A program made the translations under genes and the position numbers. Below, piece after piece: positions 16,684-62,890 of a stretch of DNA of 64,000 nucleotides; position 1 is the first letter of the stretch; the number at the start of each line of letters is the position of its first letter. The notes beneath the pieces were generated by a model. It worked only from the letters and a program-made list of their open reading frames with translations, searched no databases and was not told the origin of the DNA. This DNA is from Chloroflexota bacterium (GTDB lineage Bacteria > Chloroflexota > Anaerolineae > DUEN01): positions 24,558 through 88,557 of the forward strand of contig JAADGJ010000059.1 of assembly GCA_013152435.1 (NCBI GenBank). Reading direction: 5' to 3'.

Positions 16684-16835
16684 TGGATTACGGAGGACGA
16701 TGAACGGACGACGAAGGAGAAATGACGGGGGCCTATGAGGACCCTACCCCTCGTTCATCGTCTGTTGTCAACGAAGGGGACAACCGTGCGACTTGCGGCA
16801 AGGAAGGGGATATCCTCCGTGGAGGCGAAGTGTTC

Positions 16836-29707: not shown

Positions 29708-29799
29708 GCAGGCCTCCTGCTCTTCTCGGGTACGTAGAGGATGTTCGATTCGTCCATCGGGGGAGGCGTGGGCCTATCATATCACACCGCGTGGACTCA

Positions 29800-36292: not shown

Positions 36293-36469
36293 GCTGGCTC
36301 TCCCCTACATCGATGGTGAATATGTGGCGCTGTCAATGGATTGAGCCTCATGATGAGGCCCTGTGTTGCCCTGTGCCTTAAGGCCCGAGAGGATGGGCTT
36401 GGTTTCTATTGTACATCCGCCCGTGGAGGACGACTCTATCCCTCTGGTACCACTGCGAAGCGGCACTCC

Positions 36470-37420: not shown

Positions 37421-37473
37421 AGGACGGGATCATCTGCCACGGCCTGGATTTAACCGGGGGGCGACCGGGCTTA

Positions 37474-37626
37474 CCCTATCGCCCCCCTATGGCCATATCG
37501 GAAGATTAGGTCAGGACTTGCCAAGAGCGGCGTCGGTGGCTCCTGCAGCTCCACCTTCCGTGAGCTCTTGAAGCGTTCCGTATTCGACGATCTGAGGAGG
37601 CGAGTACGATCTACGCCTATTATCAT
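37474..37626 (-). CDS. 51-aa small ORF between cyclase and kinase (possible but unconvincing precursor peptide)
   Basis: Peptide MIIGVDRTRLLRSSNTERFKSSRKVELQEPPTPLLASPDLIFRYGHRGAIG. It is the only ORF in the 245-bp spacer and has a weak AGGT RBS. It lacks a Thr(-2)/Gly-Ala-Ser-Cys(+1)/Asp-Glu(+7..9) lasso core signature and a C-terminal Ser. Confidence 0.25.
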
Positions 37627-37665
37627 GACGTGATTCTACCTGCTTTGTATCCGATCGGTCGCCCA

Positions 37666-39603: not shown

Positions 39604-40046
39604 TTGTGGATCGCTTGGGTCCCCAGGGAGGCGAAGTTGCTGATAGCCGAGTCCGGTTCTCCCACGGGCTGGCCGGCGTATTCCACCCACGCGTGAGCGA
39701 GCAGCGTGTCGTCCTCCTTACGCACCCCGATGCGCAGCTCGGTGACGATGCCCTGGCGGCCTAACAGCCATTGCAGGGCCAAGGCCCGTCGCAGACAGCT
39801 CATCGGATACAGGTGATGGCGCGCTGCGATGTCCACCAGACGTTGCACCTGGTGTATGATCGCGGTGTCCTCCTCCGCTGACGGACGGTGCCGGCTTTCC
39901 CGATGCCTTGCCGTCCGCTGTTGAATCATAGAAAACGGCAGCAAACGCAGCCCGAGATCGATCGTCAGCAGCAAGATCCACGCCTGGGCCAGGATCCACT
40001 TCTCGTGGCGAGAGAGGCGGAGCAGACTCTGTAGCTTACGTCTCAT
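39600..40046 (-). CDS. transglutaminase-like leader peptidase (lasso B2 protein)
   Basis: Cys-His contexts YPMSCLRRALAL and LLAHAWVEY. Confidence 0.8.
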   Translation of the reverse strand: MRRKLQSLLRLSRHEKWILAQAWILLLTIDLGLRLLPFSMIQQRTARHRESRHRPSAEEDTAIIHQVQRLVDIAARHHLYPMSCLRRALALQWLLGRQGIVTELRIGVRKEDDTLLAHAWVEYAGQPVGEPDSAISNFASLGTQAIHK

Positions 40047-46057: not shown

Positions 46058-47284
46058 ATGGCACAACCCAACGAGATCGACTATAAATCCTTTTTGCGAA
46101 CCCTCGGGCGCCCTATTGTCGTCCTGCTGACGCTTCAACTGATGGGGGGCATGATCCTCGCCCCGCATCTCACCTTTTTCCCGCTTTACCTGAAGGACTT
46201 GGGCCACTCCACCATTGTGATCGCCAACATCGTCGCCGCCAGGCAGGTGGCGGGGTTGATCGCGTCCCTGGTCGGTGGCACCCTGAGCGACTCGGTGGGG
46301 CGGAAATGGACGCTGCTATTGGGGAACGTGGGCTATCTGGTGTCCAGCTTCGCGTTTCTCGTCCTTTCGCCGGGTTGGATCGGACTTCTATGGATCATCG
46401 GCGGGTTTGGGCAGGGCTTGCACACCCTGGGCGGGCAGAGTTATCTGATGGACACTGCTGCCCCCCAGTTTCTCGGCCTGACCTCGGCTTTGTACAACTG
46501 GGGCTATACGCTCGGCGGCGTGCTCAGCAGCCCTATCGCGGGCTGGATCCTCGATCGTTGGGACTATGGCGTCTTTGCCAGAGTGTTGGTCGTGTTCTCC
46601 ATTGGCACGGTGGCGCTCAACCAATTCGTCTTGCCACGCTCCCCCGTGGAGCACCGGACGCAGGCTCCCGGCCTGAGTCGCTTCTTCGGCTATGGCGATA
46701 TCGCCCCTCGTCCCACCGTGCTGATTCTGGCCACGCTGCGCTTCCTGCCCACGTTCTACTATGCGATCATGCTGGTCCTGATCCCCTTGCTGCTGGACGC
46801 CGCCGGGGCCAGCAAGACGATCATCGCCTGGTACGCCACGATCAGCTGGATAGCGGCCTCCCTCGCTCAGGCCGTCGTGGGATATGCCGCGGACCGGTGG
46901 AACCCCATCCCGGCGACGGCGATGACCTTTGCCGCGCTGCTCGCCAGCATGCTCGGCATCGGGCTCCGATCTTCCAGCCTGTGGGTCGTGTTCACTTTTG
47001 GGACCGTGGGCATCGCCGCTGCGTGGTCGCTGTCGACCCTGTTGCCCAGCCTTGTCGCTCTGGCCACCGTCCCGGAGGAGCGCGGGCGCGTCTTGGGATT
47101 CATCCATTTGTGGTGGAACCTCGCCATGATCATCGGGTCGATGGCCAGCGGGGCGCTGTTCGAGATCGCCTCCGGATTGCCCTTCTTGGTCGCCGGCATC
47201 GCCAACATCGGCTCCCTGGCTCTGCTGTTCGTCTATCATCGCCTCGTCGCACCGTCGCGTGCCTTGCCTTCCTCCCCCCGCTAA
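46058..47284 (+). CDS. MFS-family transporter
   Basis: 12 predicted transmembrane segments and the MFS loop motif GTLSDSVGRKWTLL. Confidence 0.8.
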   Translation: MAQPNEIDYKSFLRTLGRPIVVLLTLQLMGGMILAPHLTFFPLYLKDLGHSTIVIANIVAARQVAGLIASLVGGTLSDSVGRKWTLLLGNVGYLVSSFAFLVLSPGWIGLLWIIGGFGQGLHTLGGQSYLMDTAAPQFLGLTSALYNWGYTLGGVLSSPIAGWILDRWDYGVFARVLVVFSIGTVALNQFVLPRSPVEHRTQAPGLSRFFGYGDIAPRPTVLILATLRFLPTFYYAIMLVLIPLLLDAAGASKTIIAWYATISWIAASLAQAVVGYAADRWNPIPATAMTFAALLASMLGIGLRSSSLWVVFTFGTVGIAAAWSLSTLLPSLVALATVPEERGRVLGFIHLWWNLAMIIGSMASGALFEIASGLPFLVAGIANIGSLALLFVYHRLVAPSRALPSSPR

Positions 47285-49272
47285 CGCTCTGTTTGTTGAT
47301 CGCGTTCGCCAGGGGGCAACAGGTCCACGCGGCGGATCTCCCAGAGGCGATCGTGCCGTAAGGCCTCCTCCTGCCGGATTTCCGTCCCCTGTGTGTCCGG
47401 TTCCAGCTGCCAGATACTGCCCGGAGGGCCGGCGAACGTGAGTCGGAATGGCCACGCGGGGGTGCCGGGTTGCTTCTGAACCATGAGTCGGTAGGCATCC
47501 CGCGTGACGACCCCCTCGGGCAGCCGATATATGAGCCGTACGACATGCGCCGTCCCCGGCTTCATCACGAAATATCCGGCGATCTCCCACGTTTCCTTCT
47601 CGCCAGGTTCCTCCTGCACGCTCCCCGGGTCCAATCCTTCCGCCTCCAGCAGCCGGGAGCCGTCTGGCACGTACACGCGCAGGTAGTTCCAATAACAGCG
47701 GCGTGTCATGTCTGCATATGTGCGGCCGTACTCCGGCCGGTGGACACAAGAGGGCAGCTCGATCTGGACGGGATGCGTGTAGGTGAGCGTCAGCCGGGCG
47801 GTCCAGCCGTTCTCTTGCCAGGTGACGGCGTAGTCCATCTGACGGGCGACGACCGCGTTGACCTTGTTATATCCCACGTTCGTGTCGAACACGGCCAGAT
47901 AGTCCTGCTCTCCCGGGTGCAGGCCGCCGTCCCATCCCAACGTCGTGATCACCGCCTGGGCCTCCGGGTGGTTCACGTAGATCAGGATGTGCTTCTCACG
48001 GGCCGCCTTCCAAAACGCGTATCCCAGCCGTTGGAGATCCACGTCTCCACCGCTCAGCCGCTGGACGGCCGCCTGCACGAGGGCGGGCATGAAGTCCTTT
48101 CGCCGCCGCCACCATTCCCTGGAATCTTGCTCAATGGTCAGTCCCTCGGCCGGCTGTTCCCAGGCCGCCTTGATCTGGGACAGGACGTTCTTCCTCGTGA
48201 GGGGTTTCTCGGCACCGGGGACGTGGAGTGGCTCCAGCGCGCCGACGAGCTCCTGCACGGCGATCAGGTCGAAGGCGATGACGCCGTGGGTAGCCACGCC
48301 CTGATCCAGCTCGTACAGCGTCTGCATGATGCGAGCGCTGGTGGGGAAATCCGGGGACCAGTTGGCGTCCCGCAGGAAGAGGAGTTCGGCGCCCATGTAG
48401 CGGCGTAACGGCTCCGGCGCGGGTGGGTGGGGCTGGTCCAGATTGTCGACGGCGTAGCTGTCCCGGAACGTGAGATCCACGATCCGTCCGTCGATCAGGC
48501 GAACCAATCCGGCCCCGCTGATGAACCCGCCGGTGGCCCGTAGCTCGTCGCTGTTCTGGGCGATGATCAGGTAGGCCCGCTCGCCCTGGGCGCCCAGGAG
48601 GTCTGGCAGGTGGGGCAGGAGATCCACCAAGGGCCGTCCCGCGGCGAGAAGATCCCGGCCCCGTCGCAGGCGATCTCCCCAGACGGGGGGGAGGCGTCCC
48701 GGATCGACCCGTTGGAGCGCCGCGCTGGCCTGGTCCAGATGGGCTCCCACCGAGCGCCAGGCCGGCGCTCCGGCCTCCAGATAGGGCAACACCCGCGCCA
48801 GGATGTCGACCTGCGCGGCGTCGCCTGGGGAATCGCCCGGCCGCCTCAGCGCTTCCAGCATGGGCAGCGCCTGTTCCGCCCCGATACGGCCGGCGCTGAC
48901 CAACGCGATCCCCGCCTCCAGCAGATCGGGGGCGATGCTGATCTCATAGCCATAGCGGGGCAGCGGCTCCAGGCGCCGCATGAGCGGGAAAAAGGGCTCG
49001 ATCTCGTCCCGCAGGCTGGTGAGCTCGGCCTCCATGGTGCCCAGAAGCGGAGGCAGATCTTTCCACTGCGCCGGGTCCTGAGGCTGTGCGAGCGCCTGGC
49101 GAGCCGTCGACTTCAGCTGTTGAGCGGTGGCCCATATGGCCCGGGCGTGGGTGTAGACGCGATAAGCCTTGAACCCGGCCCAGCCGAGGGAGATCAGGAT
49201 GATACTCGTGAGCGCCAGGATCAGGAATCGGCGATAAGGTGTGCCTCGTCGTGATGGCAGAGAGCGTGTCAT
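47281..49272 (-). CDS. N-terminally membrane-anchored hypothetical protein (DUF4012-like?)
   Basis: 663 aa with a single N-terminal transmembrane helix (FLILALTSIILISLGWAGF) and a large extracytoplasmic domain. It is the last gene of the long minus-strand envelope operon. Confidence 0.55.
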   Translation of the reverse strand: MTRSLPSRRGTPYRRFLILALTSIILISLGWAGFKAYRVYTHARAIWATAQQLKSTARQALAQPQDPAQWKDLPPLLGTMEAELTSLRDEIEPFFPLMRRLEPLPRYGYEISIAPDLLEAGIALVSAGRIGAEQALPMLEALRRPGDSPGDAAQVDILARVLPYLEAGAPAWRSVGAHLDQASAALQRVDPGRLPPVWGDRLRRGRDLLAAGRPLVDLLPHLPDLLGAQGERAYLIIAQNSDELRATGGFISGAGLVRLIDGRIVDLTFRDSYAVDNLDQPHPPAPEPLRRYMGAELLFLRDANWSPDFPTSARIMQTLYELDQGVATHGVIAFDLIAVQELVGALEPLHVPGAEKPLTRKNVLSQIKAAWEQPAEGLTIEQDSREWWRRRKDFMPALVQAAVQRLSGGDVDLQRLGYAFWKAAREKHILIYVNHPEAQAVITTLGWDGGLHPGEQDYLAVFDTNVGYNKVNAVVARQMDYAVTWQENGWTARLTLTYTHPVQIELPSCVHRPEYGRTYADMTRRCYWNYLRVYVPDGSRLLEAEGLDPGSVQEEPGEKETWEIAGYFVMKPGTAHVVRLIYRLPEGVVTRDAYRLMVQKQPGTPAWPFRLTFAGPPGSIWQLEPDTQGTEIRQEEALRHDRLWEIRRVDLLPPGERDQQTER

Positions 49273-49282
49273 CAGTACAGCC

Positions 49283-50848
49283 CTACGGGGTGTGCGGTTT
49301 CAGCAAATACAGTGGACCCTTGCGGATGGCGCTGTAGCGGGTGAGCGGATCCACCATCAGCTCCGCCAGGTAGACCGGCCGGACGCGCACGTTTTCATCC
49401 ACCAGCGCGCCGAAATCGGGCGGGGTGGATCGCCCCCCGACCAGCACCACGTCGGGATGCCATCTTGCCACCGTTTCCCGGTACCAGTCAAAGGCGTACA
49501 GGTTGGCGTTGAGGATGGCCACGTCGGGGCGCAGGCCCAGGCCGTAGCGGAAATACCACAGGGAGAACGTCGGCTGATCGGTGGCCGTGATGATGAGAGC
49601 ATCATCCTGGGCCGTGGCCAGCGCCTGTCGCCCGAAGTCCACGGCCTCTCGATCTTCCCCCAGATCTTCGGCCGCCCAGTGCATCCACACCTGCCCGGCC
49701 GGCAGCAGGGCGAGCGCGAACAGAAGGGCCCCGGCGACCGCGCGAGATCGGCCCGGCCAGCGCTCTCGGACCCATTGGATCGCCTCGGCCCCCGTCACCC
49801 AGGCGCCCAGCGCGATCGCGGGCGCCAGCGAGAGGTACACGGGGCTCAGGTAGACGTAGGAGTCCGCCGTGCTGTAGCCCAGCGCGTATACGCTGAACAC
49901 GGCGACGTTCAGGATCGTCATGCTCAGCAGGCCGCGGTGGTTCGCCTCCGCCCACCACAGCCCAAACAGCGCCAGTGCCAGCCCGGGGAGCGTCAGGTTC
50001 TGCAGCAGGAGGGCTGCCCAGCCGGATAGCCGCCACGGAAGCCAGGCGAGGGGGAAGGCGAAGACGAGGGGGCGATATGCCTGTCCGGAGACCAGCCACC
50101 AGAGCCGGGGGAGATCACGAGGGTTCCCCCAGTTCACCGGCGGATCCCGATGAGCGGCCCATGGCAGGTACAGATACGTCAACAGGCCGATCGCGCAGCC
50201 GATGAGGAGCCCCATGAGGGCGCGTCGGGTCAGGCGCGTCCCGCTCAGCCGGATATATGCGAACATCCCCGGGATGAGCAACGCCAGCGAGAGGTGATTC
50301 CCCAGACCCAGGCCGAACAGCAGCCCCACCGCAAGTCCCTGTCTGCCGCGCACGACACCGCCTCCTAGACGGAGCGCCAAGTAGATGAGGGCGGCCGTGA
50401 AGAGCGCGTGGAGCCCGTAGACCTCCGTGATGACCGCCTGGGACCATAGGGTGGGGGCGAAGCCGATGAGCAAGGCCACGATCGCTGCAAGGGGGCGTGC
50501 GATCGCTTGAGGCGCTTGGGCCTCTCGCAGGGATCGCTCACCGGCCAGCGCGATGAAGACGAGCGCGAGGCTGGTGGTGAGCGCGGAGAAGAGATTGCCC
50601 AGGAAGGCAGGAGGGCCGCCTGGCAACGCGAGCATCCCCCGCAGGAGGAGCATGTAGGTGGGATAGCCGGGGGGATGGGGAACGCCGCCGGTCAGTGCAG
50701 CGGTCAACAGATCGCCGCCGTCGGCGCCGTTGTGGGCCCAGGTCAGGTCCGGCGCCAGCGTGGCCCGGTAGACGGCGAAGGCGATGAGCGCTGGCCCGAG
50801 GGGCCACAAGCGGGTGATGGATCTGGGGCGGCCGCGTGTCACTTGCAT
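49283..50848 (-). CDS. DUF2723 / protein-O-mannosyltransferase-like GT-C fold membrane protein
   Basis: N-terminal AVYRATLAPDLTWAHNGADGGDLLTAALTGGVPHPPGYP motif typical of DUF2723/PMT-like proteins; 521 aa with many transmembrane segments. Confidence 0.6.
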   Translation of the reverse strand: MQVTRGRPRSITRLWPLGPALIAFAVYRATLAPDLTWAHNGADGGDLLTAALTGGVPHPPGYPTYMLLLRGMLALPGGPPAFLGNLFSALTTSLALVFIALAGERSLREAQAPQAIARPLAAIVALLIGFAPTLWSQAVITEVYGLHALFTAALIYLALRLGGGVVRGRQGLAVGLLFGLGLGNHLSLALLIPGMFAYIRLSGTRLTRRALMGLLIGCAIGLLTYLYLPWAAHRDPPVNWGNPRDLPRLWWLVSGQAYRPLVFAFPLAWLPWRLSGWAALLLQNLTLPGLALALFGLWWAEANHRGLLSMTILNVAVFSVYALGYSTADSYVYLSPVYLSLAPAIALGAWVTGAEAIQWVRERWPGRSRAVAGALLFALALLPAGQVWMHWAAEDLGEDREAVDFGRQALATAQDDALIITATDQPTFSLWYFRYGLGLRPDVAILNANLYAFDWYRETVARWHPDVVLVGGRSTPPDFGALVDENVRVRPVYLAELMVDPLTRYSAIRKGPLYLLKPHTP

Positions 50849-51771
50849 CGCGATGTGGGCACATGAGCGCCGGTAGGCGGGAGATAGGCCGGCGGGAGGG
50901 GGATGCTGACCCCAGTGGACAGGCGGAGCCCCTCTGTGGTGGCGACCTCGATGATGTTGTCGATGATCTCACCGGGAGGCGCATCGGGTGCGACGATCCC
51001 CATGATGGTGAGCTCGACCGAGGAGCCCGCGGCCACGGTGCCTAGAGCGATCTCTACGATCTGCCCTGTCTGCTCCGATGTCCCCTGGGGTGCCTGGACC
51101 TCCCCCGGGGTGATCACGGGCGGAAGCTCATCACGTACCGTGACGCCTTCGGCGTCGATGGCACCTGTGTTGCTTATGGTAAGCTGGAAGGCCACCTCAC
51201 GGCCGGGAATGGCCCAGGGCGGATCCGTTATGAGGTCCAACGCCAGTTCGGGGAGGGGCTGCGGCGTGTCCGTGGGCGTGGGTGTGGGCGTCGGCGGCGG
51301 GGCCTCGGTGAGGACGGGGATCGCCGAGATGTCCCCTTGCGTTTGGGTCAAAGGCGCGTAGAGCCAGCCCGTGCGTCCTTCATACTCGATGGCCCACCAG
51401 TCTCCCTCGGCATTCTGCCCGAGGATAGGATAGGGCTGCCCTGCGTTCGCGGTCCCGATGATCGCTCGCTCCGTGCTGGGGCCCTCGCGCACGTTCATGT
51501 CCCCTCGGGGGATCGCGACCGGCGCGGCGGGCATGGGCGATGTCTCCGGGGATGAGGGGATAGGCGTGTCCGTGGGCGTAGGCGTGGGGTTTGCGGGCGT
51601 CGCAGTGGGCAGAGGTTCCGGCTTGTGTTGCTTGGTCGGCGTAGGCGTGGGAACCGTTTGCGCGGGGACGCCCGGCTGAGCCCAGGCCGGCGCGCCGGGG
51701 CCGATCGTCGCGAGCAGGATCAGGATCAACAGCGCAGCACCCGTGCTTACAAGCTCTCTCGCCTTGATCAT
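50839..51771 (-). CDS. secreted SH3b-domain + DUF11 (conserved repeat) protein with Pro/Thr-rich linkers
   Basis: Signal peptide, (TPTP)n linkers, SH3b-like block (GDMNVREGPSTER..GWLYAPL) and DUF11-like block (AFQLTISNTG..VTV). Confidence 0.6.
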   Translation of the reverse strand: MIKARELVSTGAALLILILLATIGPGAPAWAQPGVPAQTVPTPTPTKQHKPEPLPTATPANPTPTPTDTPIPSSPETSPMPAAPVAIPRGDMNVREGPSTERAIIGTANAGQPYPILGQNAEGDWWAIEYEGRTGWLYAPLTQTQGDISAIPVLTEAPPPTPTPTPTDTPQPLPELALDLITDPPWAIPGREVAFQLTISNTGAIDAEGVTVRDELPPVITPGEVQAPQGTSEQTGQIVEIALGTVAAGSSVELTIMGIVAPDAPPGEIIDNIIEVATTEGLRLSTGVSIPLPPAYLPPTGAHVPTSRCK

Positions 51772-51787
51772 ATCACAGCCTCACAGG

Positions 51788-53631
51788 TTATCGACGGACA
51801 ACCGCCAGAGGGAAGAACTGTCGCGTGACTCCCACGAAGACATCGCCGATGGCCGTGTTGTTGTCCGGGTTGACGTCACCCTCTACGCCCACCAGCCGGG
51901 CATACACCTGGTAATATCCCGGCGAGAGGTTCCGCCATACGATCTCCGCCGTCGCGTCGGATCCCGGCTGCTTCTCGACGATGTCGATCATCGTGCCTCC
52001 GCCCTGCGGATCGCCATGCCAGAACTCCACGGTGAACCCGGTGTCGCTGCCGCGTCCGCCGAGGCTTTGGATCCGGACGCGCACGGGGACGTCGATGGGA
52101 GCCCCCGTGGGCGTGAGGGGCGGCAGCGCGCCGGCGCTGGGAGTGGTGATAGCCAGATCCAGGGGCAGATCCACAGTGGTAGAGAGCGTGTTGTTGTCCT
52201 CGTTGGGCTCCTCGATCTCCCGGCGCGCATCCACCTGGAAGGATATCGTGGCCCCCTGCACGTTCGCCCGGGACCATGTGATGACGGCAGAGGCGTTGCC
52301 CTGGTAGCGGCTAGGCACGCCGGGTATGCTCTTCTCCTTGATGAGGGTTCCCGTGCCCACCGGGCCATCCCAGAATCGCACCCGGAACAGGTCTGCGACG
52401 GTGTTCCCCCAATTCGTCACCGTGCCTCGTAACTCGAGTTGGGTGGGCTCGATGGCCCAGATGGGGGACTCCAGGACCCGGTAGGTCAGGGACACAGGTT
52501 CCAGGTCGACATAGGGGGTGACGAGCGGGGCGGTGTAGGCCGCATACGCCTCTCCCATGGGGGTGATCTGGCCGGTGTCCGGGTCAAAGAGGGCTCCCCA
52601 GGTCGTCCCCCAGCCGAAGCTGTTGTCGTCCAGGCTATACCAGGCCCAACGTTGCACCAGCCGATTATCGTCGTCTGGCATGCCCAGTTCGCTGTCTCGC
52701 GCGTTCAGGAAGTAATTGAAGGTGTTGTACATGTAATTCCGCACACGCTCGAAGTCGTAGCCCAGCTCCTCGTTGAACAGGATCCCGTACTCGGAGACGA
52801 TCAGTTCCTTTTTACGTTGTCCGTGGTTGCGCATCCAACGTCGGAAGCGCAGGACCTGATCCTGTAGCAGGTCCATACGGTCCAGGTCGCTGATCTCGAT
52901 CCACAGCCCACAGTTGGCATCGATGCCCGGCGGGATGTCCGCTCCCCAGGCTCCGAGCTCGCGTGCGCCCGGCGGGGCGCACTGCAACACCTCCTCCAGG
53001 GGCAGACCCGGCTTCAGCTCTCGCAACACGAAGGTGTGGATGTTCCACACGTCGACGGGCATCGTCTCCCCGTACAGGCGCTGGTATTCGTCCCACACCA
53101 TGTTCAGCCACTTCATGCGTAGCGGCGTGGCCTGGACGATGCCGCCGTTCGCGATCCGGGCCGTCGGATCGATGCTCTTGATCAGGTAGTAAAGTTCATG
53201 GTAGAGCTGGGCGTAGACGGTGGGGTGTACGCTGTCCTGGGTGTAGATGCGATCGGGCTCGTTGCCGATGAGCCACAGAGTGCCCGGGTTGTTGCGGACC
53301 GTCTCGACCAGAGCGTCGCCGTACGGGGAATAGGGAGTGTTACACGATCGGTACTGGCTATCGCACAGCCGGATGATCTGCACATATTCCAGGCCGGCCG
53401 GGTTCCTGGTGCGGGAGGTGGAACCCCAATTCACATACCATCCCGCGTGCAGCTTCCCCACGTCGAATCGACCGATGTCGGTGACGACGCCGAAGCCGAA
53501 ACGCTCGTTGGCGGATGGATAAAGCGTGCCTTGCTGTGTGCCTGTGTCGGCGAGGGCGGGAGTCCCTCCGCCGACGAGAAATCCCAGAATCGTTCCCAAT
53601 AAGAGAAGCGTCAGAGCCATCTGACGCATAG
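51788..53631 (-). CDS. secreted clan GH-A glycoside hydrolase with C-terminal CARDB-like domains
   Basis: The start is taken at MRQMALTLLLLG, a signal peptide. Acid/base motif WLIGNEPD and nucleophile motif IVSEYG define a GH-A TIM barrel. The C-terminal beta-domains carry NNT..V motifs. Confidence 0.6.
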
Positions 53632-53772
53632 GACTTACCTCGATGAAGAAGTGGTGATGACAAAGCAAATGTGGGGCACCCCGCGCGCCGGCGCCCCACA
53701 TCGCGTTTTTATATTTCGAAATCGGTAGAAATCGGGGTTGCCCGTTTAGTAGCACTCACCTCTTGGCCAACA

Positions 53773-54237
53773 TTACTTGCGGCGTGCCCGCATCCGCAAC
53801 CCCGCGTAGCCAGCCAGACCGGCCAGGCCGCTGCCCAGCATCAGGATCGTGGTCGGCTCGGGGATGATGGGGGGAGCCTGGAAGGTATCCCACGTGAACA
53901 CGCCTTCGGCGCATTCCGCGTAGATGGTGATCGTCTCATCCAGCTCGATCGGACGGAGCAGGTTGACGACGAAGTTGCCGTCTTGGTCTACAAGACCTGT
54001 ACCCAGCAGCACGCCATCGGGCCCACTGCCCGAGTAGATGTAGACGGTCACGTTGGCGCAACGGGTATCCAATTGCCCTCGAACCACCGTGTCGCCCTGG
54101 GTGGGTGGCGTGATATTCCCCGGGACGCTGGTGCTTGTGCCCTGCATCCAGGGGGCTGCCCACGCACCACCGAACGAGGAGAGCGCTAAGATGATGAGGA
54201 TCACTGCCGTGATGAGGATAGAAGCGCGTCGGAGCAT
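53773..54237 (-). CDS. PEP-CTERM sorting-domain protein (exosortase substrate)
   Basis: Signal peptide, then C-terminal PEP-TTILMLGSGLAGLAGYAGL-RMRARRK, a canonical PEP motif followed by a transmembrane segment and a basic tail. Confidence 0.75.
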   Translation of the reverse strand: MLRRASILITAVILIILALSSFGGAWAAPWMQGTSTSVPGNITPPTQGDTVVRGQLDTRCANVTVYIYSGSGPDGVLLGTGLVDQDGNFVVNLLRPIELDETITIYAECAEGVFTWDTFQAPPIIPEPTTILMLGSGLAGLAGYAGLRMRARRK

Positions 54238-54532
54238 TCTCCTTTCTCCTTTCTGACCTCGAAGCTAGGGTACTGTCATGGAAGATAGCTAGGGTGATGA
54301 TCGGGATAATGGAGTGTTTGCCGGGAGGATATACAGAACGGCGAGCGACCACCCCCCTTCCCCACCGATACCGGTACTCCATACCGGCGTTATGCTCATT
54401 TCAAGTTTGATGAAGTCGTGCCAAGTATAGCAGATTTCATTAGGATTGTCCAGTGCAAAACCCAGAAGATTTTGTAAAAAGCGTAAGGGAGAGAAGGTTA
54501 TCCTTTCAGCACGAGAGGCGATCTCATTGACG

Positions 54533-56122
54533 CTACAAGGCTCCATCCCCTCGCCACACGGCGAAGATCGTCCGCCAGAGGATGGCCAGATCGCGTCGTA
54601 GCGAGTAGTGATCGATGTAGTCCAGCTCCAACGCCAGGCGTTCGCTCAGGCTGAGACGGCCGCGGCCGTTCACCTGCATGGGGCCGGTCATGCCCGGCTT
54701 CACCGCCAGCCGCCGTCGCTGCTCGTCCGTGTAGAGGCGTACCAGTCGGGCCTCCTCCGGGCGTGGTCCAACCAGGCTCATCTCTCCCTTCAGCACGTTG
54801 ATGAATTGGGGGATCTCGTCCAGGCTCCAGCGGCGTAGCCAGCGCCCGACGCGCGTGACGCGGGGGTCCGGGGCGTCCTTGATCACGACCCGGTCCAGCT
54901 CCTCCGGGTTTTCCGGTTGGGGCGCGCTCCGCTCCGCCTCCGCGTACATGGTGCGCAGCTTGATCATGCGAAAGGGGCGTCCGTGCTCACCCACGCGCAC
55001 CTGGGTGTAGAAGATGGGGCCGGGCGAGTCCAGTCGGATCGCCAGCGCCAGGATCGGGAGGAGCGGCAGGGTGAGGATCAGGCCTGCCAGGGCGCCGACG
55101 ATGTCCATGAGCCGCTTGATGATCCGTTGCGATCCGGCGATGGCCGGACGCTGGGGCCCGGTGTAGCCGGCGAAGCGAATGGTGCCCACGGCCAGGCCAG
55201 CGCCCAGCGCCGCCGCCCGCACCAGCAGCATGGGCAGCGCGATCAGGGATACGGCGCGATCTCGACGCCAGGCGTGGCGGAGGAAGGGGATGGCGCTGAA
55301 CGCGAACAGCCCGAACGAGAGCAGGGCTATCCACCCGAGCGGCGGCCAGAGGATCGCCCCGGCCAGCCCCAGCCCGCCCAGTCCGAGCGTGACAATCTGG
55401 ACCTTCAGCGCCTGCGGGGTATGCGAGTCGCTCATCGCCTTCTCAGGCAGCCAGCGTAGCATCAACGCCTTCCAATAACCGATATGGTACTTGCGCCGGA
55501 AGTAGGCTGGGATGGAGGTTACGTGTTGGTGGTACACCTGTGCCTGGGGGACGAAGACCAGGCGATACCCTTTAGAGGCCAGGCGGAATGAGAGCTCCTG
55601 ATCCTCCACGGTGGGGGCCTGAAAGGTCGTGTCGAACCCCCCGTTCTCCAGGAGGACCGCGCGGCGGTACCCGGCCGAGTACGTGTCGATGAAGTCGATG
55701 CGCTCGCGGCCGGCCATGCGCGCGTAGCGCTCCTCGTACTCCACCTGGACGAAGCGGGCGATGAGCTCCCGCTGGCGGGTCAGGTACGTGCCCTTGGCGC
55801 CGACCACGCCTGGGTCCGCCAGCGCCTCCAACAGACTACGGGCCCAATGGGGCGTCGGCTCGCAGTCGGCGTCCGTGAAGAGGATGAGGTCGCCTTGCGC
55901 CGCCTCCAGCCCTGCGTTGCGGGCCGCGGCGGGCCCGCTGTGCGGGATTCGGATCGTTCGGGCGCCCATGGCCCTGGCGATCTCGGTCGTGTCGTCGGTC
56001 GAGCCGTCGTCGACCACGATGATCTCGTAGGTTTCGGCGGGGATGTCTTGGCGATGTAGCGCCTGCAGGCATCGTCTCAGAGTACGGCTGGCGTTGTATG
56101 CCGGGACCACGATGGTGACCAT
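54533..56122 (-). CDS. GT2-family glycosyltransferase fused to polyprenyl-phosphate sugar-1-phosphate transferase (EpsL/WbaP C-domain)
   Basis: The 907-aa listed ORF carries a spurious 378-aa N-terminal extension. The real start is MVTIVVPAYNAS, 3 nt after the upstream stop. The GT2 domain has DDGSTDDT and DAD motifs; after transmembrane segments the C-terminal domain has DSPGPIFY..R..MIKLRTM and SLVGPRP motifs. Confidence 0.75.
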   Translation of the reverse strand: MVTIVVPAYNASRTLRRCLQALHRQDIPAETYEIIVVDDGSTDDTTEIARAMGARTIRIPHSGPAAARNAGLEAAQGDLILFTDADCEPTPHWARSLLEALADPGVVGAKGTYLTRQRELIARFVQVEYEERYARMAGRERIDFIDTYSAGYRRAVLLENGGFDTTFQAPTVEDQELSFRLASKGYRLVFVPQAQVYHQHVTSIPAYFRRKYHIGYWKALMLRWLPEKAMSDSHTPQALKVQIVTLGLGGLGLAGAILWPPLGWIALLSFGLFAFSAIPFLRHAWRRDRAVSLIALPMLLVRAAALGAGLAVGTIRFAGYTGPQRPAIAGSQRIIKRLMDIVGALAGLILTLPLLPILALAIRLDSPGPIFYTQVRVGEHGRPFRMIKLRTMYAEAERSAPQPENPEELDRVVIKDAPDPRVTRVGRWLRRWSLDEIPQFINVLKGEMSLVGPRPEEARLVRLYTDEQRRRLAVKPGMTGPMQVNGRGRLSLSERLALELDYIDHYSLRRDLAILWRTIFAVWRGDGAL

Positions 56123-56124
56123 CC

Positions 56125-57174
56125 TCAGGCCTCCAGGCGCGAGACCGGCGTCCGATGGGATTGCAGACTGACCCACATCAGGCTGATGACGCCCAGGATG
56201 ATGAGCTGCACCACCACGATCAGATGCAACCACACGGCGAAGGCCAGCGCGTGCTCCCGTGGGATGCCGAATAGCCCCAGTCCCACCATGGCCAGGTAGT
56301 GGAAGATGCCGATCTTGGCAGGCGAGGAGGGGAGCGCACTGCCTGCCTGCAGGATCACCAGCAGGGCGATGGCGATGAGCGGTGAGGGGGGCAGGTTCAG
56401 CGCTCGCAGGAGCAACAGGTTCGTGCCTGCGGACAGCAGCCAGACGAGGATCGTCCATCCCAGCAGGGCGCCCATCTGAGGGGCGGAGTGAAGGGCCGCC
56501 AGCCCGGCGTGGGCGGCCTCCCATCCCCGGCTGAGAGGGGTTCCCCAGCGGCTGGGGAGGCGATCGAGCCCCCTCTGGATGAGGGGCTGCGCGCGCTCCA
56601 GGAACACGAGGGCGCCGATGAGGGCCAGGGTGAGCCCCACGGCGAGCGTGGCGAGCCCTCGTCCCCACGCGACCAGCCAGGAGGGCCATGCGATCGTGAG
56701 GAGGAGGCCGCTGAAGGTGACGAATAGCAGGATCAGGTCGGCCCACTTCTCTATGGCGATGGTGCTGAGGGAGAGGGCCTTGCTGTGCCCCTCCAGGCGC
56801 TCCAGGGCGTAGATGCGGGCGAGTTCCCCCAGCCGGGCGGGGATCAGCAGGTTCACCATCATGCCGATTAGCAGGGCGGGCGTCAGTGCCGCCAGGCTGG
56901 GACGCTCGCCCTCCTCTGGATAGAGCCCCCGCCAGCGGGCGGCCTTGGCCCCGACGGTGGCGACCACGGAGATGATGGCGAGGCCCGCCCAGGCCGGGTG
57001 GATGTCGCCTAGAGCCCGGGTTACCTGCCCGATATCGACCGTTCTCAGGGCCAGGTAAAGCGCTCCGCCGCTCAGGATCAGGCCGAACCAGAAGCGGCCG
57101 GCTCTTACTGCCTGGCCGGCCGCCGACGAGATGGTGAAAGGAAACGGAGATTCGTGATCCGGGTTGTGATCCAA
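56125..57174 (-). CDS. flippase-like / lysylphosphatidylglycerol-synthase TM-domain family membrane protein (UPF0104)
   Basis: Multi-transmembrane protein. The listed ORF's N-terminus (poly-Leu) is an artefact of the antisense Tyr-codon repeat. The start is uncertain; a TTG near 57174 with GGAGAAAC upstream is proposed. Confidence 0.5.
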   Translation of the reverse strand: MDHNPDHESPFPFTISSAAGQAVRAGRFWFGLILSGGALYLALRTVDIGQVTRALGDIHPAWAGLAIISVVATVGAKAARWRGLYPEEGERPSLAALTPALLIGMMVNLLIPARLGELARIYALERLEGHSKALSLSTIAIEKWADLILLFVTFSGLLLTIAWPSWLVAWGRGLATLAVGLTLALIGALVFLERAQPLIQRGLDRLPSRWGTPLSRGWEAAHAGLAALHSAPQMGALLGWTILVWLLSAGTNLLLLRALNLPPSPLIAIALLVILQAGSALPSSPAKIGIFHYLAMVGLGLFGIPREHALAFAVWLHLIVVVQLIILGVISLMWVSLQSHRTPVSRLEA

Positions 57175-57179
57175 GCTGA

Positions 57180-58859
57180 CTACTCTCTTTGTTTCTCCGG
57201 CCGTGAGGGCGGTTTGCGGAACCACCGTGTCGCGATGCTGCGCCACCCTCGCCCATCGGCCTGCAGGCTCCGCCGCCGTCGGTAGCCGTTCTCGCTCTCG
57301 GAGTAGTAATAATAGTAGTAGTAATAATAGTAGTAGCCGGATCGTCCCGTTGCGAGCTTGTTCAGCGCGACGCCCAGGATGTGAGCGCCCACGTTGGTCA
57401 GCTCCTGGCATGCGCGTTGCGCCAGCGGCTGACGCGTCTCCCCGGCGTCGATGACCAGGAGCACGCCGTCGAGCTGGCGGGCCAGCACGGCCGCGTCGGT
57501 CACCGCCAGGGCGGGAGGGCTATCGAAGACGAGGATGTCGGCCTCCTGTTGGAGGCGCTGGATCACGTCCTGCATGCGCTGGGACCCCAACAGCTCCGAC
57601 GGGTTGGGAGGCGTCGGGCCGCTGGTGAGGACCCACAGGTTTTCGACCTCGGTGGGCTGCAGATAGCCGTCCAGGATGGGATCCGCCCCGGTGAGCAGGG
57701 AGGTCGTCAGGCCCGCGGCGTTGGGCAGGCCGAAGAACTTATGCAGGATAGGACGCCGCAGGTCGGTATCGATCAGGATCACGCGCTGCCCTGTCTGGGC
57801 CATGACCACGGCCAGGTTCGCCGCGGTCGTGCTCTTGCCCTCGCTGGGGCTGGAGCTGGTCACCAGGAGCGTGCGGATGGGGCGATCGACGCTGGAGAAC
57901 TGGATGTTGGTGCGCAGGGTGCGGTAGGCCTCGGAGATGGGGGATTTCGGCTCGCTGTGCGTGATGAGCTGTTGCGCTCGGCCATCGGTGCGGATGCGAG
58001 CGATGGCGCCAAGTGTAGGCAGCCCCAGGATCTGGGAGACGTCGTCGGGCGTCTTGATCGTGTCGTCCAGGTACTCGATGAGGAAGACGCCGCCGATGGC
58101 GAGCATGGCTCCTACGATGGCGGCCAGGAGGGTGTTGAGCAGGACGCGCGGCCGCACCGGGTAGGTGGGCACCTCCGCGGGCTCTGAGATGACGATGTTG
58201 TTGATGGAGCGGGCCTCCGCCAGGCGGATCTCCTCGTAGCTTTGCAGCAGGTTGGAGTAGCTGTTGCGATATTGCGTCAGCGCGCTCTGGAGCCGATCGA
58301 GTTCAGCCTGTTGTGCCGGGGTCTCCGGCGTGCCCAGGCGGGTGATGGCCTCCTGGGTTTTTGCGATGTCCTGTTGGATCGCCTCGATCTCACGCGCCAG
58401 GTTCTCCTTGGAGCTGGCGAACCGTCCCAGTTGCATGCGCTCGTTGCGCTCCGCGAAGATGACCGGGATCATGTTGGCGATCTCGGCCGCCAGCTCTGGG
58501 TTCGGGCTCTCCACACTGAGGCGGATGAGCTGGGTGTCCCGCACCGGCTGCACGGAGATCTCCTTTGCCAGCTCGTTGGCCTCCATGGGCAGGCCAAGCC
58601 GCTCGATCACCTGCTCCAGCACGGGACGGGTCTTCAGCAGCTCGGCATATGTGCGTGCCAGCCGCTCGCTGGTGAGGATCGCGGTGTAATCGTTCAGATC
58701 GGGGTTTTGCGCCTCATTGATCAGCAGGGTCACGGAGGCTTGGTAAATAGGGGTACTGTTGCGGCTGACCCAGTATGCCGTGCCGCCGGCGAGGATCGTA
58801 CAAAGCAGGATAAGCCATAGCCACCGCCAGATGATGTTCGCGTATTGTCTGAGTTCCAT
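57180..58859 (-). CDS. Wzc-like polysaccharide co-polymerase / tyrosine autokinase (BY-kinase) with C-terminal 11-Tyr cluster
   Basis: Wzz-type periplasmic domain flanked by two transmembrane helices. Walker A SSSPSEGKSTTAANLA, Walker A' ILIDTDLRRP and Walker B ILVFDSPP. The tail reads GYYYYYYYYYYYSESENGY. Confidence 0.8.
   Translation of the reverse strand: MELRQYANIIWRWLWLILLCTILAGGTAYWVSRNSTPIYQASVTLLINEAQNPDLNDYTAILTSERLARTYAELLKTRPVLEQVIERLGLPMEANELAKEISVQPVRDTQLIRLSVESPNPELAAEIANMIPVIFAERNERMQLGRFASSKENLAREIEAIQQDIAKTQEAITRLGTPETPAQQAELDRLQSALTQYRNSYSNLLQSYEEIRLAEARSINNIVISEPAEVPTYPVRPRVLLNTLLAAIVGAMLAIGGVFLIEYLDDTIKTPDDVSQILGLPTLGAIARIRTDGRAQQLITHSEPKSPISEAYRTLRTNIQFSSVDRPIRTLLVTSSSPSEGKSTTAANLAVVMAQTGQRVILIDTDLRRPILHKFFGLPNAAGLTTSLLTGADPILDGYLQPTEVENLWVLTSGPTPPNPSELLGSQRMQDVIQRLQQEADILVFDSPPALAVTDAAVLARQLDGVLLVIDAGETRQPLAQRACQELTNVGAHILGVALNKLATGRSGYYYYYYYYYYYSESENGYRRRRSLQADGRGWRSIATRWFRKPPSRPEKQRE
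57303..57335 (-). repeat. AT-only codon tract (TAC/TAT)11 encoding poly-Tyr; 15-nt period TACTACTACTATTAT
   Basis: Plus strand reads gtagtaataatagta gtagtaataatagta gta; it is the only 33-nt run with 0% GC in the window. Confidence 0.8.
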
Positions 58860-58991
58860 GGGGTAGCCTGCGCTCCTTCTGTGTCAGTTTGATTGAGACA
58901 ACACCCTGATCTGGGTGCCCACCATCTGGATGCGCGAGACACCTGGAGCTCTCAACCCGTTGAGAGCTTCAAGGGGTCCGTGCGTATCCGT

Positions 58992-59735
58992 TTATTCCTG
59001 CAGTTTCGCTCGCACGATCACGCGATGGGTGTTCGTCCAGAAAGGCCAACAGGTGATCAACGTCAGGCTGGGCTCATCCGTGGGAGCCATCCATTGGGCG
59101 TTCTTCCGCCGTTCCTCCTCAGAGGCGCCGACTTCCTGTAACAGCAGGACCTGTTCCACTTGATACGTATAATCACGCCCGTCGGCCGTGTAGACCTGGA
59201 TCTCCGCTCCCGGGATCAGCCGGGGCTCCTTGCGATCGATATCCCGGCTGATCTGCTCGAAGACCTTTCCCTTGATATTATGGTGTCCGGAGATGACCAC
59301 GTTGCCGACCTGCCCCGGATTGGCGCTGTTGACGTGATGGCCGGCTGCGTAATCGGCGGTTTGCCACTCGCTGCGTCGTTCCTCGCCCTCCCCCACGATG
59401 TGCCATCCAACCTCTACGACGGGTACGTCGATGCCAAGCGCGGGGATCACCAGGCGTACCGGTGGGCTGTCAGGCGTCGGTGTGGGGGGGATATGGGATA
59501 CGCCCTCCTCTTGGATGGGCTTCGTTGGGACAGGGGTCGACGTTGCCTGTGGGCGCGGTGTAGAGGTCGCGTCGGTGACCTGCGAGACGGTCTCGGTGAC
59601 CGTGGGAAGTGCCTGCTCGGGCTCCTGCCGCGCACTGCATCCTACGATGATGCCCAAGAGCAACATGAGGCTGGCTGCAAGCAACCTTATCAATGGTAAG
59701 AATTGGTACGAGCGGATCTTTCGTATGATAGGCAT
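58992..59735 (-). CDS. sortase-family transpeptidase (class E/F-like)
   Basis: N-terminal transmembrane anchor, catalytic His (ISGHHNI), catalytic Cys TLxTC (SLTLITCWPF) and Arg (RVIVRA). Start taken at MPIIRK. Confidence 0.7.
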   Translation of the reverse strand: MPIIRKIRSYQFLPLIRLLAASLMLLLGIIVGCSARQEPEQALPTVTETVSQVTDATSTPRPQATSTPVPTKPIQEEGVSHIPPTPTPDSPPVRLVIPALGIDVPVVEVGWHIVGEGEERRSEWQTADYAAGHHVNSANPGQVGNVVISGHHNIKGKVFEQISRDIDRKEPRLIPGAEIQVYTADGRDYTYQVEQVLLLQEVGASEEERRKNAQWMAPTDEPSLTLITCWPFWTNTHRVIVRAKLQE

Positions 59736-60589: not shown

Positions 60590-61789
60590 ATGCTCGTAAA
60601 GGCGGTGGTGGACGTCCGTGACCGGGTGTCCTTGCTGAGTCAGGCCGCTCGATATGACGCCTGTCCGGAGGCCGGGCGGGTTGTCTCCGCCCCGCCCACG
60701 CGGGGGGCGAGGGTGCCCGCGGGATTCCTGCCGGAGCAGCGGGTCTCGCATGTCCTCGCCGGGGGACGGCGCATGCCCGTGCTCAAGATCTTGCAGACCA
60801 GCGCCTGCGAGCGGAACTGCTTCTATTGCCCCTTCCGCGCGGGTCGAGGGTTCCGCCGCGAGTCCCTTTCCCCCGACGACCTGGCTCACACCTTCGATCA
60901 GATGACCCGCGCCGGATTGGTGGAGGGGCTGTTTCTGAGCTCCGGCATCCTGAACACGACCCGCAGCATGGACCAGATGATCGCCACCGTCGAGATCCTG
61001 CGCCGGAAGTATGAGTTTCGCGGGTATGTCCACCTGAAGCTGTTGCCCGGCGCGGAGGCGGCGCACATCGAGCGGGCGATCGCGCTGGCGGATCGGGTGA
61101 GCGTGAACCTGGAGGCGCCGACGCCGGCTCGTCTGGCGCGGCTGGCGCCTCGCAAGGAGTTCACCCGTGAGCTGTGGGATACGCTGCACCGCGCGGCGGC
61201 TCTGATTCGGATGATGCGGCGGGAGGGGCGACCTGCCGCCCGCGCCGGCATCGTCACCCAATTCGTCGTCGGGCCCGCCGGGGAGAGCGATCGGGAGCTG
61301 TTGGCCACCGTGCAGGCCCTATACAATGCTCAGGTGCTCTCCCGGGCGTACTTTAGTGCCTTTTCCCCCGTCCCCGATACCCCGCTGGAGGACCATCCAC
61401 CGACCCCCTCACTGCGTGAGCATCGCCTCTATCAGAGCGATTTCCTCCTCCGCTACTATGGGTTCCGCGCCGATGAGTTGGTCTATGATGAGGATGGCCA
61501 TCTCGTGCTGGATCGGGATCCGAAGCTGGCCTGGGCGCTGGCGCATCCGGAGCGGTTCCCGATCGAGGTGAACCGGGCGGGGCGTCATCTTCTCCTTCGC
61601 GTGCCGGGCATCGGCCCGCGTTCGGCCGATCGCATCCTCGCGGCCCGTCGCTGGGGGACGCTGCGCGATCTGGGCCAGCTGAGGCGTCTGGGTGTGAATA
61701 CGGAACGGGCGGCCCCCTTCCTCCTCCTGGCCGGGCGCGCTCCGGCCGTTCAACTCCCGCTGTTCCCCGAATGGCGCGCCGCATCCTGA
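60590..61789 (+). CDS. putative DNA modification/repair radical SAM protein (TIGR03916-like) with C-terminal helix-hairpin-helix
   Basis: CxxxCxxC motif TSACERNCFYCPF, N-terminal AARYDAC, and C-terminal HhH (LLRVPGIGPRSADRILAARRWGTL). Confidence 0.7.
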   Translation: MLVKAVVDVRDRVSLLSQAARYDACPEAGRVVSAPPTRGARVPAGFLPEQRVSHVLAGGRRMPVLKILQTSACERNCFYCPFRAGRGFRRESLSPDDLAHTFDQMTRAGLVEGLFLSSGILNTTRSMDQMIATVEILRRKYEFRGYVHLKLLPGAEAAHIERAIALADRVSVNLEAPTPARLARLAPRKEFTRELWDTLHRAAALIRMMRREGRPAARAGIVTQFVVGPAGESDRELLATVQALYNAQVLSRAYFSAFSPVPDTPLEDHPPTPSLREHRLYQSDFLLRYYGFRADELVYDEDGHLVLDRDPKLAWALAHPERFPIEVNRAGRHLLLRVPGIGPRSADRILAARRWGTLRDLGQLRRLGVNTERAAPFLLLAGRAPAVQLPLFPEWRAAS

Positions 61790-61939: not shown

Positions 61940-62890
61940 ATGATGACCCAGGAGCCCTCGGCGATGCACGAGATTGAAATCCAGGTCCGCCCGGCGGCGC
62001 AGGAGGATCGAGCTCGTATTCTGGCGTTGCTCGATCAGGCTCGTCGCCAATACGTGGCCTTTGGCCTCGAGGACCTTTCCAGCCTGTTGGCTCATCCCAC
62101 CCACATTTTCGTCCTGGCCGATACGGGGCCGTTATTGTGGGGGATCGCGTGCGCCACGGTGCGGCCACGTCCGGTGGCCCCCGGTGAGGAGGCGTCGGTC
62201 AACTGGAGCTATCTGCGCGGGCTGGCGCTAACCAACGGCTGGCGTGCCGAAGTGGGTGTGTGGACGCTGCTGGAGGGCCTGCGTGTGGGGCTGCAGGCCC
62301 GTGATGCCACGTATCTGGTCGCCTATGCCACTCAACCGTGGATGGTACATCCTCTGTTAAAAGCGGGGTTGCGTCCCGTTGAGCACATCATCACGTATGA
62401 GCGTACTCATCGGGCGTTGCCCAAGTCCGTGCTTCCCCCTCATGTCCATATCCGCCCAGCTCGCCCGGATGACGTGTCCGACCTGACCCTGCTGGATGCG
62501 GCCGCCTTTGAGCCGCTATGGCGTTTGGCCAGCGGCGAGCTGATCGGGCTGCTGGTGACCAGTGGGCATTTCGTCGTGGCCGAGCGCGCCGGGAGGCTGG
62601 TGGGATACGTGTGCAGCGACGTGCAGCGCGGCCTGGGCCACGTGCATCGTCTGGCGGTGCATCCCGATGTGCAAGGGCAGGGGATCGGCCGGGCCCTGCT
62701 GGCCGACGCGCTGGCGTACTGCCAGTCCGCCGGTGCCTCACTGGTCACGATCAATACGCAGCAGAGCAATGCTCGATCGGATCGTCTGTATCGTCGGTTC
62801 GGATTTCGGCCGATGCCTCGGCGGATTCCCGTCATGATGGGGGAGATCGCCGCTCGCGAAGGGCAGATCGCGCAAGATCGGCCGCCGTGA
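61940..62890 (+). CDS. tandem-GNAT N-acetyltransferase
   Basis: Two acyl-CoA-binding motifs: (R/Q)xxGxG/A-like in each half, with RLAVHPDVQGQGIGRALL in the second. Confidence 0.7.
   Translation: MMTQEPSAMHEIEIQVRPAAQEDRARILALLDQARRQYVAFGLEDLSSLLAHPTHIFVLADTGPLLWGIACATVRPRPVAPGEEASVNWSYLRGLALTNGWRAEVGVWTLLEGLRVGLQARDATYLVAYATQPWMVHPLLKAGLRPVEHIITYERTHRALPKSVLPPHVHIRPARPDDVSDLTLLDAAAFEPLWRLASGELIGLLVTSGHFVVAERAGRLVGYVCSDVQRGLGHVHRLAVHPDVQGQGIGRALLADALAYCQSAGASLVTINTQQSNARSDRLYRRFGFRPMPRRIPVMMGEIAAREGQIAQDRPP

Follow-up and report, generated by a model that had tools for sequence, protein, structure and literature searches.

Within the window, a 64,000-nucleotide stretch of 65% GC from a Chloroflexota bacterium contig (JAADGJ010000059.1), nine consecutive genes on the minus strand span positions 47281-59735 and encode a sortase, a chain-length determinant fused to a bacterial tyrosine kinase (BY-kinase), a flippase-like membrane protein, a family 2 glycosyltransferase (GT2) fused to a priming sugar transferase, a 154-amino-acid (aa) protein with a PEP-CTERM tail, a putative hydrolase with a CARDB domain, an SH3b/DUF11 protein, a TMEM260-like protein and a DUF4012 protein (Table 1). 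Family scans confirmed each domain and so bore out the gene list of an earlier note on this DNA. That note had also described the nine genes as minimally spaced, which is true of the gaps of -10 to 16 nucleotides (nt) but not of the 132 nt past the sortase, nor of the spacers on both flanks of the PEP-CTERM gene (295 nt upstream, 143 nt on the hydrolase side). Gene callers placed the start of the sortase at M51 (59666), and the BY-kinase carries 11 consecutive tyrosines near its C-terminus.

Table 1. Genes and signals of the envelope operon, listed in the direction of transcription; scores are given in bits against family cutoffs where a cutoff is quoted.
Feature	Coordinates	Strand	Evidence
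Sortase	58992-59735	minus	PF04203 89 bits vs cutoff 26.6; TLITC motif
Fused chain-length determinant/BY-kinase	57180-58859	minus	Wzz (PF02706) + GNVR (PF13807); TIGR01007 202.9 bits vs 108.05
Flippase-like multi-transmembrane protein, LPG_synthase_TM/UPF0104	56125-57174	minus	PF03706 147 bits; TIGR00374 54.6 vs 43.2
GT2 with C-terminal transmembrane helices, fused to Bac_transf phosphoglycosyl transferase	54533-56122	minus	PF00535 117.7; PF02397 210.8 bits
Promoter-like site	54424-54452	minus	TGGACA-17-TATACT, extended -10; consensus match only
PEP-CTERM protein, 154 aa, secreted, Ig-like	53773-54237	minus	TIGR02595 19.1 bits vs 16
PEP-CTERM signal IPEPTTILMLGSGLAGLAGYAGLRMRARRK	53776-53865	minus	tail of the 154-aa protein
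Secreted putative glycoside hydrolase + CARDB	51788-53629	minus	PF11790 (Glyco_hydro_cc) 23.8 vs 21, weak; PF07705 26.7 vs 22.7
Secreted SH3b (SH3_3) + DUF11 (CLIPPER) protein, PT-rich linkers	50839-51771	minus	PF08239 41 bits; PF01345 47 bits
LPPTG motif of SH3b/DUF11 protein	50869-50883	minus	9 residues from C-terminus; candidate sortase site
TMEM260-like/DUF2723 multi-transmembrane GT-C-type protein	49283-50848	minus	PF11028 86.8 bits vs 24.2
DUF4012 protein, N-terminally anchored, last operon gene	47281-49272	minus	PF13196 108.8 bits

The operon is conserved in at least four further species-level metagenome-assembled genomes (MAGs). Elsewhere it recurs with sortase, flippase-like protein, GT2, PEP-CTERM protein, hydrolase/CARDB, DUF11 protein, TMEM260-like protein and DUF4012, and the core kept across species comprises the sortase, the GT2 with its transmembrane (TM) helices, the flippase-like protein, the TMEM260-like GT-C, the three secreted proteins and DUF4012, the last being found in loci L003, L005/6, L009 and L057. 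Translational overlap of the sortase orthologue with its downstream neighbour is seen in L003 and L057. The L006 and L057 operons include the BY-kinase and priming transferase; L003 lacks both, and its GT2+TM part stands alone as a gene of 323 aa. A sequence identical to the 154-aa protein occurs in GCA_054014295.1 and one 99% identical in the Chloroflexota MAG Dive96_bin10.82, while MAGs labelled Anaerolineae supply orthologues at 55-65% identity.

The open reading frame (ORF) of the 154-aa protein ends in IPEP-TTILMLGSGLAGLAGYAGL-RMRARRK, with a PEP motif, a hydrophobic helix and a basic cluster at the extreme C-terminus, and the identical protein NOZ27913.1, from a contig of 126,251 bp, is named in GenBank by its annotation pipeline (PGAP) 'MAG: PEP-CTERM sorting domain-containing protein [Chloroflexi bacterium]'. 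Database annotation already names such proteins, and this one is a member of a known family. Model scores are marginal (TIGR02595 E 0.0016, above cutoff; PF07589 16.5 bits, below its 20.7), and the PEP-CTERM call, weak when taken alone, is made secure by conservation of the tail in orthologues and its identity to a large Anaerolineae tail family. Comparison of three orthologues put identity at 86-93% over the 28-residue tail and at 39-54% over the mature domain. Within the tail, 4-12 codons differ synonymously, a pattern indicative of purifying selection. Across orthologues, both the PEP motif and the lineage-specific core GSGLAGLAGYA are nearly invariant. The earlier note had allowed that the motif might be a generic membrane anchor, should orthologues lack a signal peptide. 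By inspection, the hydrophobic N-terminus leading to AWA|AP is kept in all six orthologues, which argues against a generic anchor.

When one genome from each species was scanned for the peptide SGLAGLAGY, 47 loci were returned. Roughly 40 lie in Anaerolineae/Chloroflexota MAGs, often with several in the same genome, and 82 ORFs in the 47 loci end [VI]PEPxT..LLGSGLAGLAGYA.LR.R. The same 28-residue tail is carried by proteins with unrelated N-terminal domains (P0006-P0008), and the Chloroflexota MAG CSMAG_1213 has eight tandem same-tail genes (L047:2905-10706) with no exosortase within 10 kb. The 64-kb window itself holds a single PEP-CTERM tail in a six-frame scan. It might be supposed that the match reflects nothing more than a chance likeness of a hydrophobic, basic C-terminus, as the TIGR02595 E-value and the Pfam score below its gathering threshold would allow. 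However, PF07589 picks up just 22% of TIGR02595 matches (Haft 2006, PMC1569441), and PGAP applied the name. Four of the loci in which the shared tail recurs place it beside an exosortase, as described below. We regard a chance likeness as scarcely credible, and on these sequence comparisons it is already refuted by the tail family and the orthologue conservation. The tail of the 154-aa protein is, as judged from its sequence, a genuine PEP-CTERM signal of a type common in Anaerolineae.

The mature part of the protein was modelled by AlphaFold as a seven-strand Ig-like sandwich (predicted local distance difference test scores of 84-93, residues 40-118), and its top Foldseek match in the PDB was the Ig-like domain of gingipain K (E 5.8e-5). 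A strong AAAGGAGAAAGGAGA Shine-Dalgarno sequence follows the promoter-like site, ahead of the PEP-CTERM gene.

No exosortase gene of the window accompanies this signal: when all ORFs of at least 80 aa were searched with a profile of four Anaerolineae exosortases, nothing was retrieved at E<=1, in agreement with the earlier note, which had found none in the operon. The other multi-TM ORFs of the window are a major facilitator superfamily transporter and an orphan without a family match. This orphan, of 507 aa (27537-29057), was considered as a cryptic exosortase or GT-C and rejected, with no Pfam or NCBIfam match and an hhalign probability against exosortases of 0.04%.

Exosortases are nevertheless present in the class. 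In four of the 47 loci (L020, L022, L029 and L054) an exosortase lies directly beside a same-tail gene. These four proteins are multi-pass, with approximately 7-8 TM helices, are 276-301 aa long (276-289 aa from the likely start), score 148-159 bits against TIGR02602 (cutoff 105.55) and all contain C-x-G and N-x-x-R, described as exosortase motifs by Haft 2006 (PMC1569441). Their scores of 152-166 against the XrtA model fall below its cutoff of 208, so that none can be assigned to a named Xrt type. An EpsI-like gene (TIGR02914 40-42 bits vs 42.8) comes after each of them, and these four loci lead us to conclude that Anaerolineae possess an exosortase/EpsI system of their own. At E<=1e-10 the profile of the four retrieves 1999 database proteins; PF09721 is present in every one of the best 120, with the named ones coming from Anaerolineae/Chloroflexi MAGs, and none of these 120 is as GC-shifted in composition as the membrane proteins of the window. 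Behind the exosortase and EpsI genes, a lipoprotein of approximately 400 aa without a family is conserved (L022:11855-13120, L029:2996-4183, L020:1589-3082), and this may be a third component of the system.

Linkage between enzyme and cargo is the exception in this group. An exosortase occurs within 10 kb of same-tail genes in only four of the 47 loci, and in 2/19 when loci of at least 15 kb are taken, so that the Anaerolineae exosortase is mostly unlinked to its PEP-CTERM cargo genes (43/47 loci; 17/19 of those of at least 15 kb). An exosortase apart from the cargo locus is thus normal here, and the apparent puzzle of a substrate without an enzyme is largely resolved and ordinary. Of the two explanations offered in the earlier note, a distal exosortase is accordingly favoured, at the level of the class, where Anaerolineae MAGs with the same tail encode exosortase and EpsI and about 90% of loci are unlinked. 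The exosortase of the window's cargo is most likely encoded elsewhere in the genome, as this class-level evidence and the selection acting on the tail would suggest.

The other explanation, that sorting in this lineage is organised differently, would have the PEP-CTERM protein processed by something other than an exosortase, either the operon's own sortase or a second peptidase of the window. A 996-aa secreted C25 peptidase (33314-36304, minus) resembles the type IX sortase PorU (NF033707 282 bits vs 420; PF01364 270; C25 propeptide) and lies about 11 kb beyond the operon's last gene, making it the third sorting-type peptidase in the window. To our knowledge, no type IX secretion system is known in Chloroflexota. 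The presence of this transpeptidase-type enzyme could be taken to favour such processing, as could the fact that, in at least three species, one operon contains both genes, sortase and PEP-CTERM. However, the PorU-like score is below cutoff and no link between this gene and the operon was seen in relatives, and the association of sortase with PEP-CTERM gene breaks down in both directions. In L057/L058, two assemblies of a related species in which the sortase is 80% identical, the operon persists without a PEP-CTERM gene, the GT2 fusion being followed after 67 nt by the hydrolase gene. Assemblies with the operon but no PEP-CTERM gene include GCA_033581235.1 and GCA_025060615.1. Conversely, the PEP-CTERM and hydrolase/CARDB genes occur as a pair among unrelated genes, away from the sortase operon, in L060, and without the sortase operon in L010, on a contig of only 5.8 kb. 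None of the other 46 loci of the SGLAGLAGY scan has a homologue of the sortase, nor of any other operon gene save for the hydrolase of L010 and, in L040, a weak match to the DUF11 domain. The sortase family also has a canonical substrate ending in LPTTGG plus a membrane anchor, and the LPxTG pattern is not matched by IPEPTT. Taken together, these observations count against a differently organised sorting, and we consider processing by the sortase or the PorU-like peptidase very unlikely.

From the L057/L058, L060 and L010 arrangements it follows that the constant partner of the PEP-CTERM protein is the hydrolase/CARDB protein and not the sortase; the two genes are paired in L003, L005-7, L010 and L060. 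The PEP-CTERM gene is an accessory insert in the sortase operon. The hydrolase/CARDB protein itself gave no significant match in a PDB sequence search. In L057/L058 its gene is split into three ORFs of 92 aa, 159 or 154 aa, and 386 aa (14963-16921), and this, together with the missing PEP-CTERM gene, may represent decay of the module. All hydrolase/CARDB orthologues also share the ending x-F-[FLVI]-P-L-x(2-5), as in RQFFPLAVVRR and RYFVPLVVSP. Unrelated Anaerolineae ORFs end in YRAYLPLLCRG and RSFYLPLVIK, and the PorU-like peptidase ends in GIYMPFIQHQSP. The sequences compared were the window gene, its L003, L005, L057 and L060 orthologues, L010:324-2369, L034:778-2013 and the PorU-like peptidase. 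Secreted proteins may share here a C-terminal motif that has gone unrecognised.

The sortase appears to serve a system of its own. Its two histidines (HH), the TLITC cysteine and the HRVIVR arginine are conserved in the orthologue alignment, while the sortase class models were missed (best, class E 59.4 bits vs 160; class F 51.1 vs 166). The N-terminus has a lipoprotein-like signal with a lipobox-like LLGIIVGC (LLAGILASC is also found in the alignment), followed by a PT-rich linker. On an Anaerolineae contig of 1.8 Mb (L143), a 51%-identical orthologue has housekeeping genes (der, trmD, rplS) as its neighbours, and the 162-aa protein encoded immediately before it ends LPTTGG-TELPALWALLSSGALGVVLLVLG-RLFRR, a canonical sorting signal. 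The enzyme looks like a housekeeping type, the general sortase of the lineage, and the recognition motif of its family appears, judging by the L143 neighbour, to be LPxTGG.

The earlier note had proposed a search for LPXTG substrates of the sortase. No canonical LPXTG followed by a TM segment and basic tail was found anywhere in the 64-kb window by six-frame scan; beyond the signal at L143, the SH3b/DUF11 protein ends PLPPAYLPPTG plus nine residues. The corresponding ends of the orthologues from three further species are ELSPTGG.., ELPPTGG.. and ELPPTGA.., giving L[PS]PTG[GA] across four species, and the protein is a candidate substrate of the sortase on the strength of this conserved end. Searching a representative library with the DUF11 domain added no orthologues, the matches being dominated by giant multi-repeat DUF11 proteins. 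The possibility that a frameshift fuses the LPPTG protein to the TM helix of the next gene was considered and rejected, the junction differing in each orthologue (-10, +2, +8 and +50 nt).

Tandem FemAB/FemX-like peptidyl-transferase genes are also present in the window (10975-12050 and 12057-13268, minus; NF047883 82 and 90 bits), and this pair suggests a peptidoglycan with side-chain branches or interpeptide bridges. Classical sortases attach proteins to such branched or bridged structures. Approximately 6 kb upstream of the orthologous sortase operon in L057 lie two LytR_cpsA_psr (LCP) genes (2230-4426); in monoderms, enzymes of this family link glycopolymers to the peptidoglycan.

The remaining core genes point towards glycosylation. 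GT2, flippase-like and TMEM260-like proteins each score above their family cutoffs and are conserved together in L003, L006 and L057. A GT2, a flippase and a GT-C form the standard layout by which a lipid-linked sugar is made inside the cell and transferred outside, and by analogy the trio may constitute a lipid-linked extracytoplasmic glycosylation route. The N-terminal stretch HNGADGGDLLTA of the TMEM260-like protein is conserved in three orthologues and is tentatively read as its first loop. In humans, TMEM260 acts as an O-mannosyltransferase on proteins, with specificity for Ig-like IPT domains (PMC10214176), and the three secreted proteins of the operon combine PT-rich linkers with Ig-like folds or Ig-type domains (CARDB, DUF11). 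Because of the GT2/flippase/GT-C layout and the activity of human TMEM260, it is plausible that the locus makes, glycosylates and anchors a set of surface-layer or polysaccharide-associated proteins. The BY-kinase and priming transferase would then be an added polysaccharide branch in some lineages.

Drawing these strands together, we think it probable that this is a conserved Anaerolineae envelope operon whose PEP-CTERM cargo is sorted by a distal exosortase/EpsI pair and whose sortase belongs to a separate system. In this model, the operon of an uncultured Anaerolineae-type Chloroflexota is headed by the general sortase of the lineage and carries three gene sets: the Bac_transf phosphoglycosyl transferase and BY-kinase for initiation and control of a polysaccharide; the GT2+TM, flippase-like and TMEM260-like trio for a putative glycosylation route outside the membrane; and three secreted Ig-type surface proteins. 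The 154-aa Ig-like protein would be cleaved and sorted by an exosortase and its EpsI partner, with genes lying elsewhere in the genome, while the separate sortase system would act on the LPxTGG-type motif at the end of the operon's SH3b/DUF11 protein.

Several points weigh against this model. No exosortase was found in the lineage DNA examined, namely the 64-kb window and approximately 60 kb of orthologous loci. A single locus with the exact SGLAGLAGY pattern came from Dive96_bin10.82 (JAJRVX01), the MAG that represents the species, and the median number of PEP-CTERM proteins per positive genome is eight (Haft 2006, PMC1569441). The LPPTG end of the SH3b/DUF11 protein is followed by neither a hydrophobic segment nor a basic tail, and the protein is therefore at best a non-canonical sortase substrate. 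The GT2 domain gave no specific match to a polyprenyl-phosphate sugar synthase in family scans, and the glycoside hydrolase assignment is weak at 23.8 bits. The first two of these observations would also suit a lineage that has no exosortase, in which the tail persists as an inherited, uncleaved C-terminal anchor tethering the Ig-like protein to the cytoplasmic membrane, and the PEP-CTERM gene does look like a recent insert with its own promoter-like site. However, a plain TM anchor needs no such conservation as is seen in the nearly invariant PEP motif and GSGLAGLAGYA core, when the rest of the protein is so much less alike, and the tail matches those found beside exosortases. An uncleaved anchor is consequently rather improbable.

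Beyond the model of a distal exosortase and a separate sortase, a bolder possibility is that the two unrelated covalent sorting systems and the TMEM260-like glycosylation cooperate on one operon-encoded surface structure. Here, the sortase might fix the SH3b/DUF11 protein through its anchor-less LPPTG, with SH3b rather than a TM segment holding the protein at the wall. The distal exosortase might release the Ig-like PEP-CTERM protein to work with the adjacent hydrolase/CARDB protein, and the GT-C might glycosylate the Ig-type proteins. We hold this to be unlikely, if worth entertaining; if true, PEP-CTERM sorting would operate in a cell that lacks an outer membrane, and the LPPTG end would represent a sortase signal of a new kind.

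Elsewhere in the window, a lasso-peptide cluster (36470-40046, minus) comprises an HprK-related kinase (36470-37420), a cyclase/asparagine synthetase homologue (37666-39690; NF033535 454 bits) and a B2 protein (39600-40046; NF033537 90 bits); a precursor peptide was not located in this cluster. A membrane-anchored multihaem cytochrome with an MtrC/MtrF-like domain and NrfH-like features (29009-29773, minus) adjoins the orphan 507-aa multi-TM ORF, which is likewise on the minus strand. At the right end of the window is a truncated penicillin-binding protein, for which a metagenome scan returned only relatives at or below 73% identity. Searches for proteins identical to those of the window genes at 60590-61789 and 61940-62890 returned no record.

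Full-text literature searches found no paper on exosortases or PEP-CTERM proteins in Anaerolineae or Chloroflexota. A sortase and an exosortase cargo are encoded here in one conserved operon of Chloroflexota, a phylum whose apparently outer-membrane-free, multilayered envelope is still debated. The modest interest that remains comes from this sharing of an operon by sortase and exosortase cargo, from an LPPTG end that lacks an anchor and from a putative route of TMEM260-type glycosylation. The locus supplies candidates for the builders of the outer layers in these filaments, and for bacterial TMEM260-type protein glycosylation.

Sortases and their LPXTG substrates have been defined as a feature of monoderms. 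All PEP-CTERM species have been stated to possess an outer membrane (Haft 2006, PMC1569441), whereas Chloroflexota, the phylum of our host, are generally regarded as monoderm with a multilayered envelope (10.1101/2025.08.19.671072). With this difference of host, the cargo resembles that of the PEP-CTERM/exosortase (EpsH, XrtA-type) system of Gram-negative exopolysaccharide producers in its signal peptide, PEP motif, TM helix and arginine-rich end (PMC1569441). As at EpsH/XrtA loci, the cargo shares its locus with a chain-length determinant, a BY-kinase and a priming transferase for sugars, and in the same bacterial class exosortases with C-x-G, N-x-x-R and EpsI partners adjoin same-tail genes. 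In contrast to those systems, the window locus holds no exosortase and the core of its tail is lineage-specific. Its accessory proteins do not reach the corresponding equivalog models (TIGR03018 140.7 vs 230.65; TIGR03007 80.4 vs 278.85; TIGR03013 168.7 vs 393.35), and for this reason it is not an XrtA-type exopolysaccharide locus.

The sortase differs from LPXTG and class E/F-like housekeeping enzymes in missing the class cutoffs, in its lipoprotein-like N-terminus and in an in-operon candidate substrate that ends in LPPTG plus 5-9 residues with no anchor. It is like them in its histidine, TLxTC cysteine and arginine, in the orthologue that sits beside an LPTTGG+TM+RR protein, and in the Fem-type genes of the window. 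Similarly, the putative glycosylation route, proposed by analogy, departs from the GtrABV type in having a UPF0104/LPG_synthase_TM flippase instead of GtrA and, in the window, a GT2 fused to a priming phosphoglycosyl transferase. It nevertheless shares the plan of three-component glycosylation systems of the GtrABV and PMT/TMEM260 types, with a GT2+TM protein, a flippase-like protein and a TMEM260-like GT-C grouped together and kept with Ig-type, PT-rich secreted proteins.

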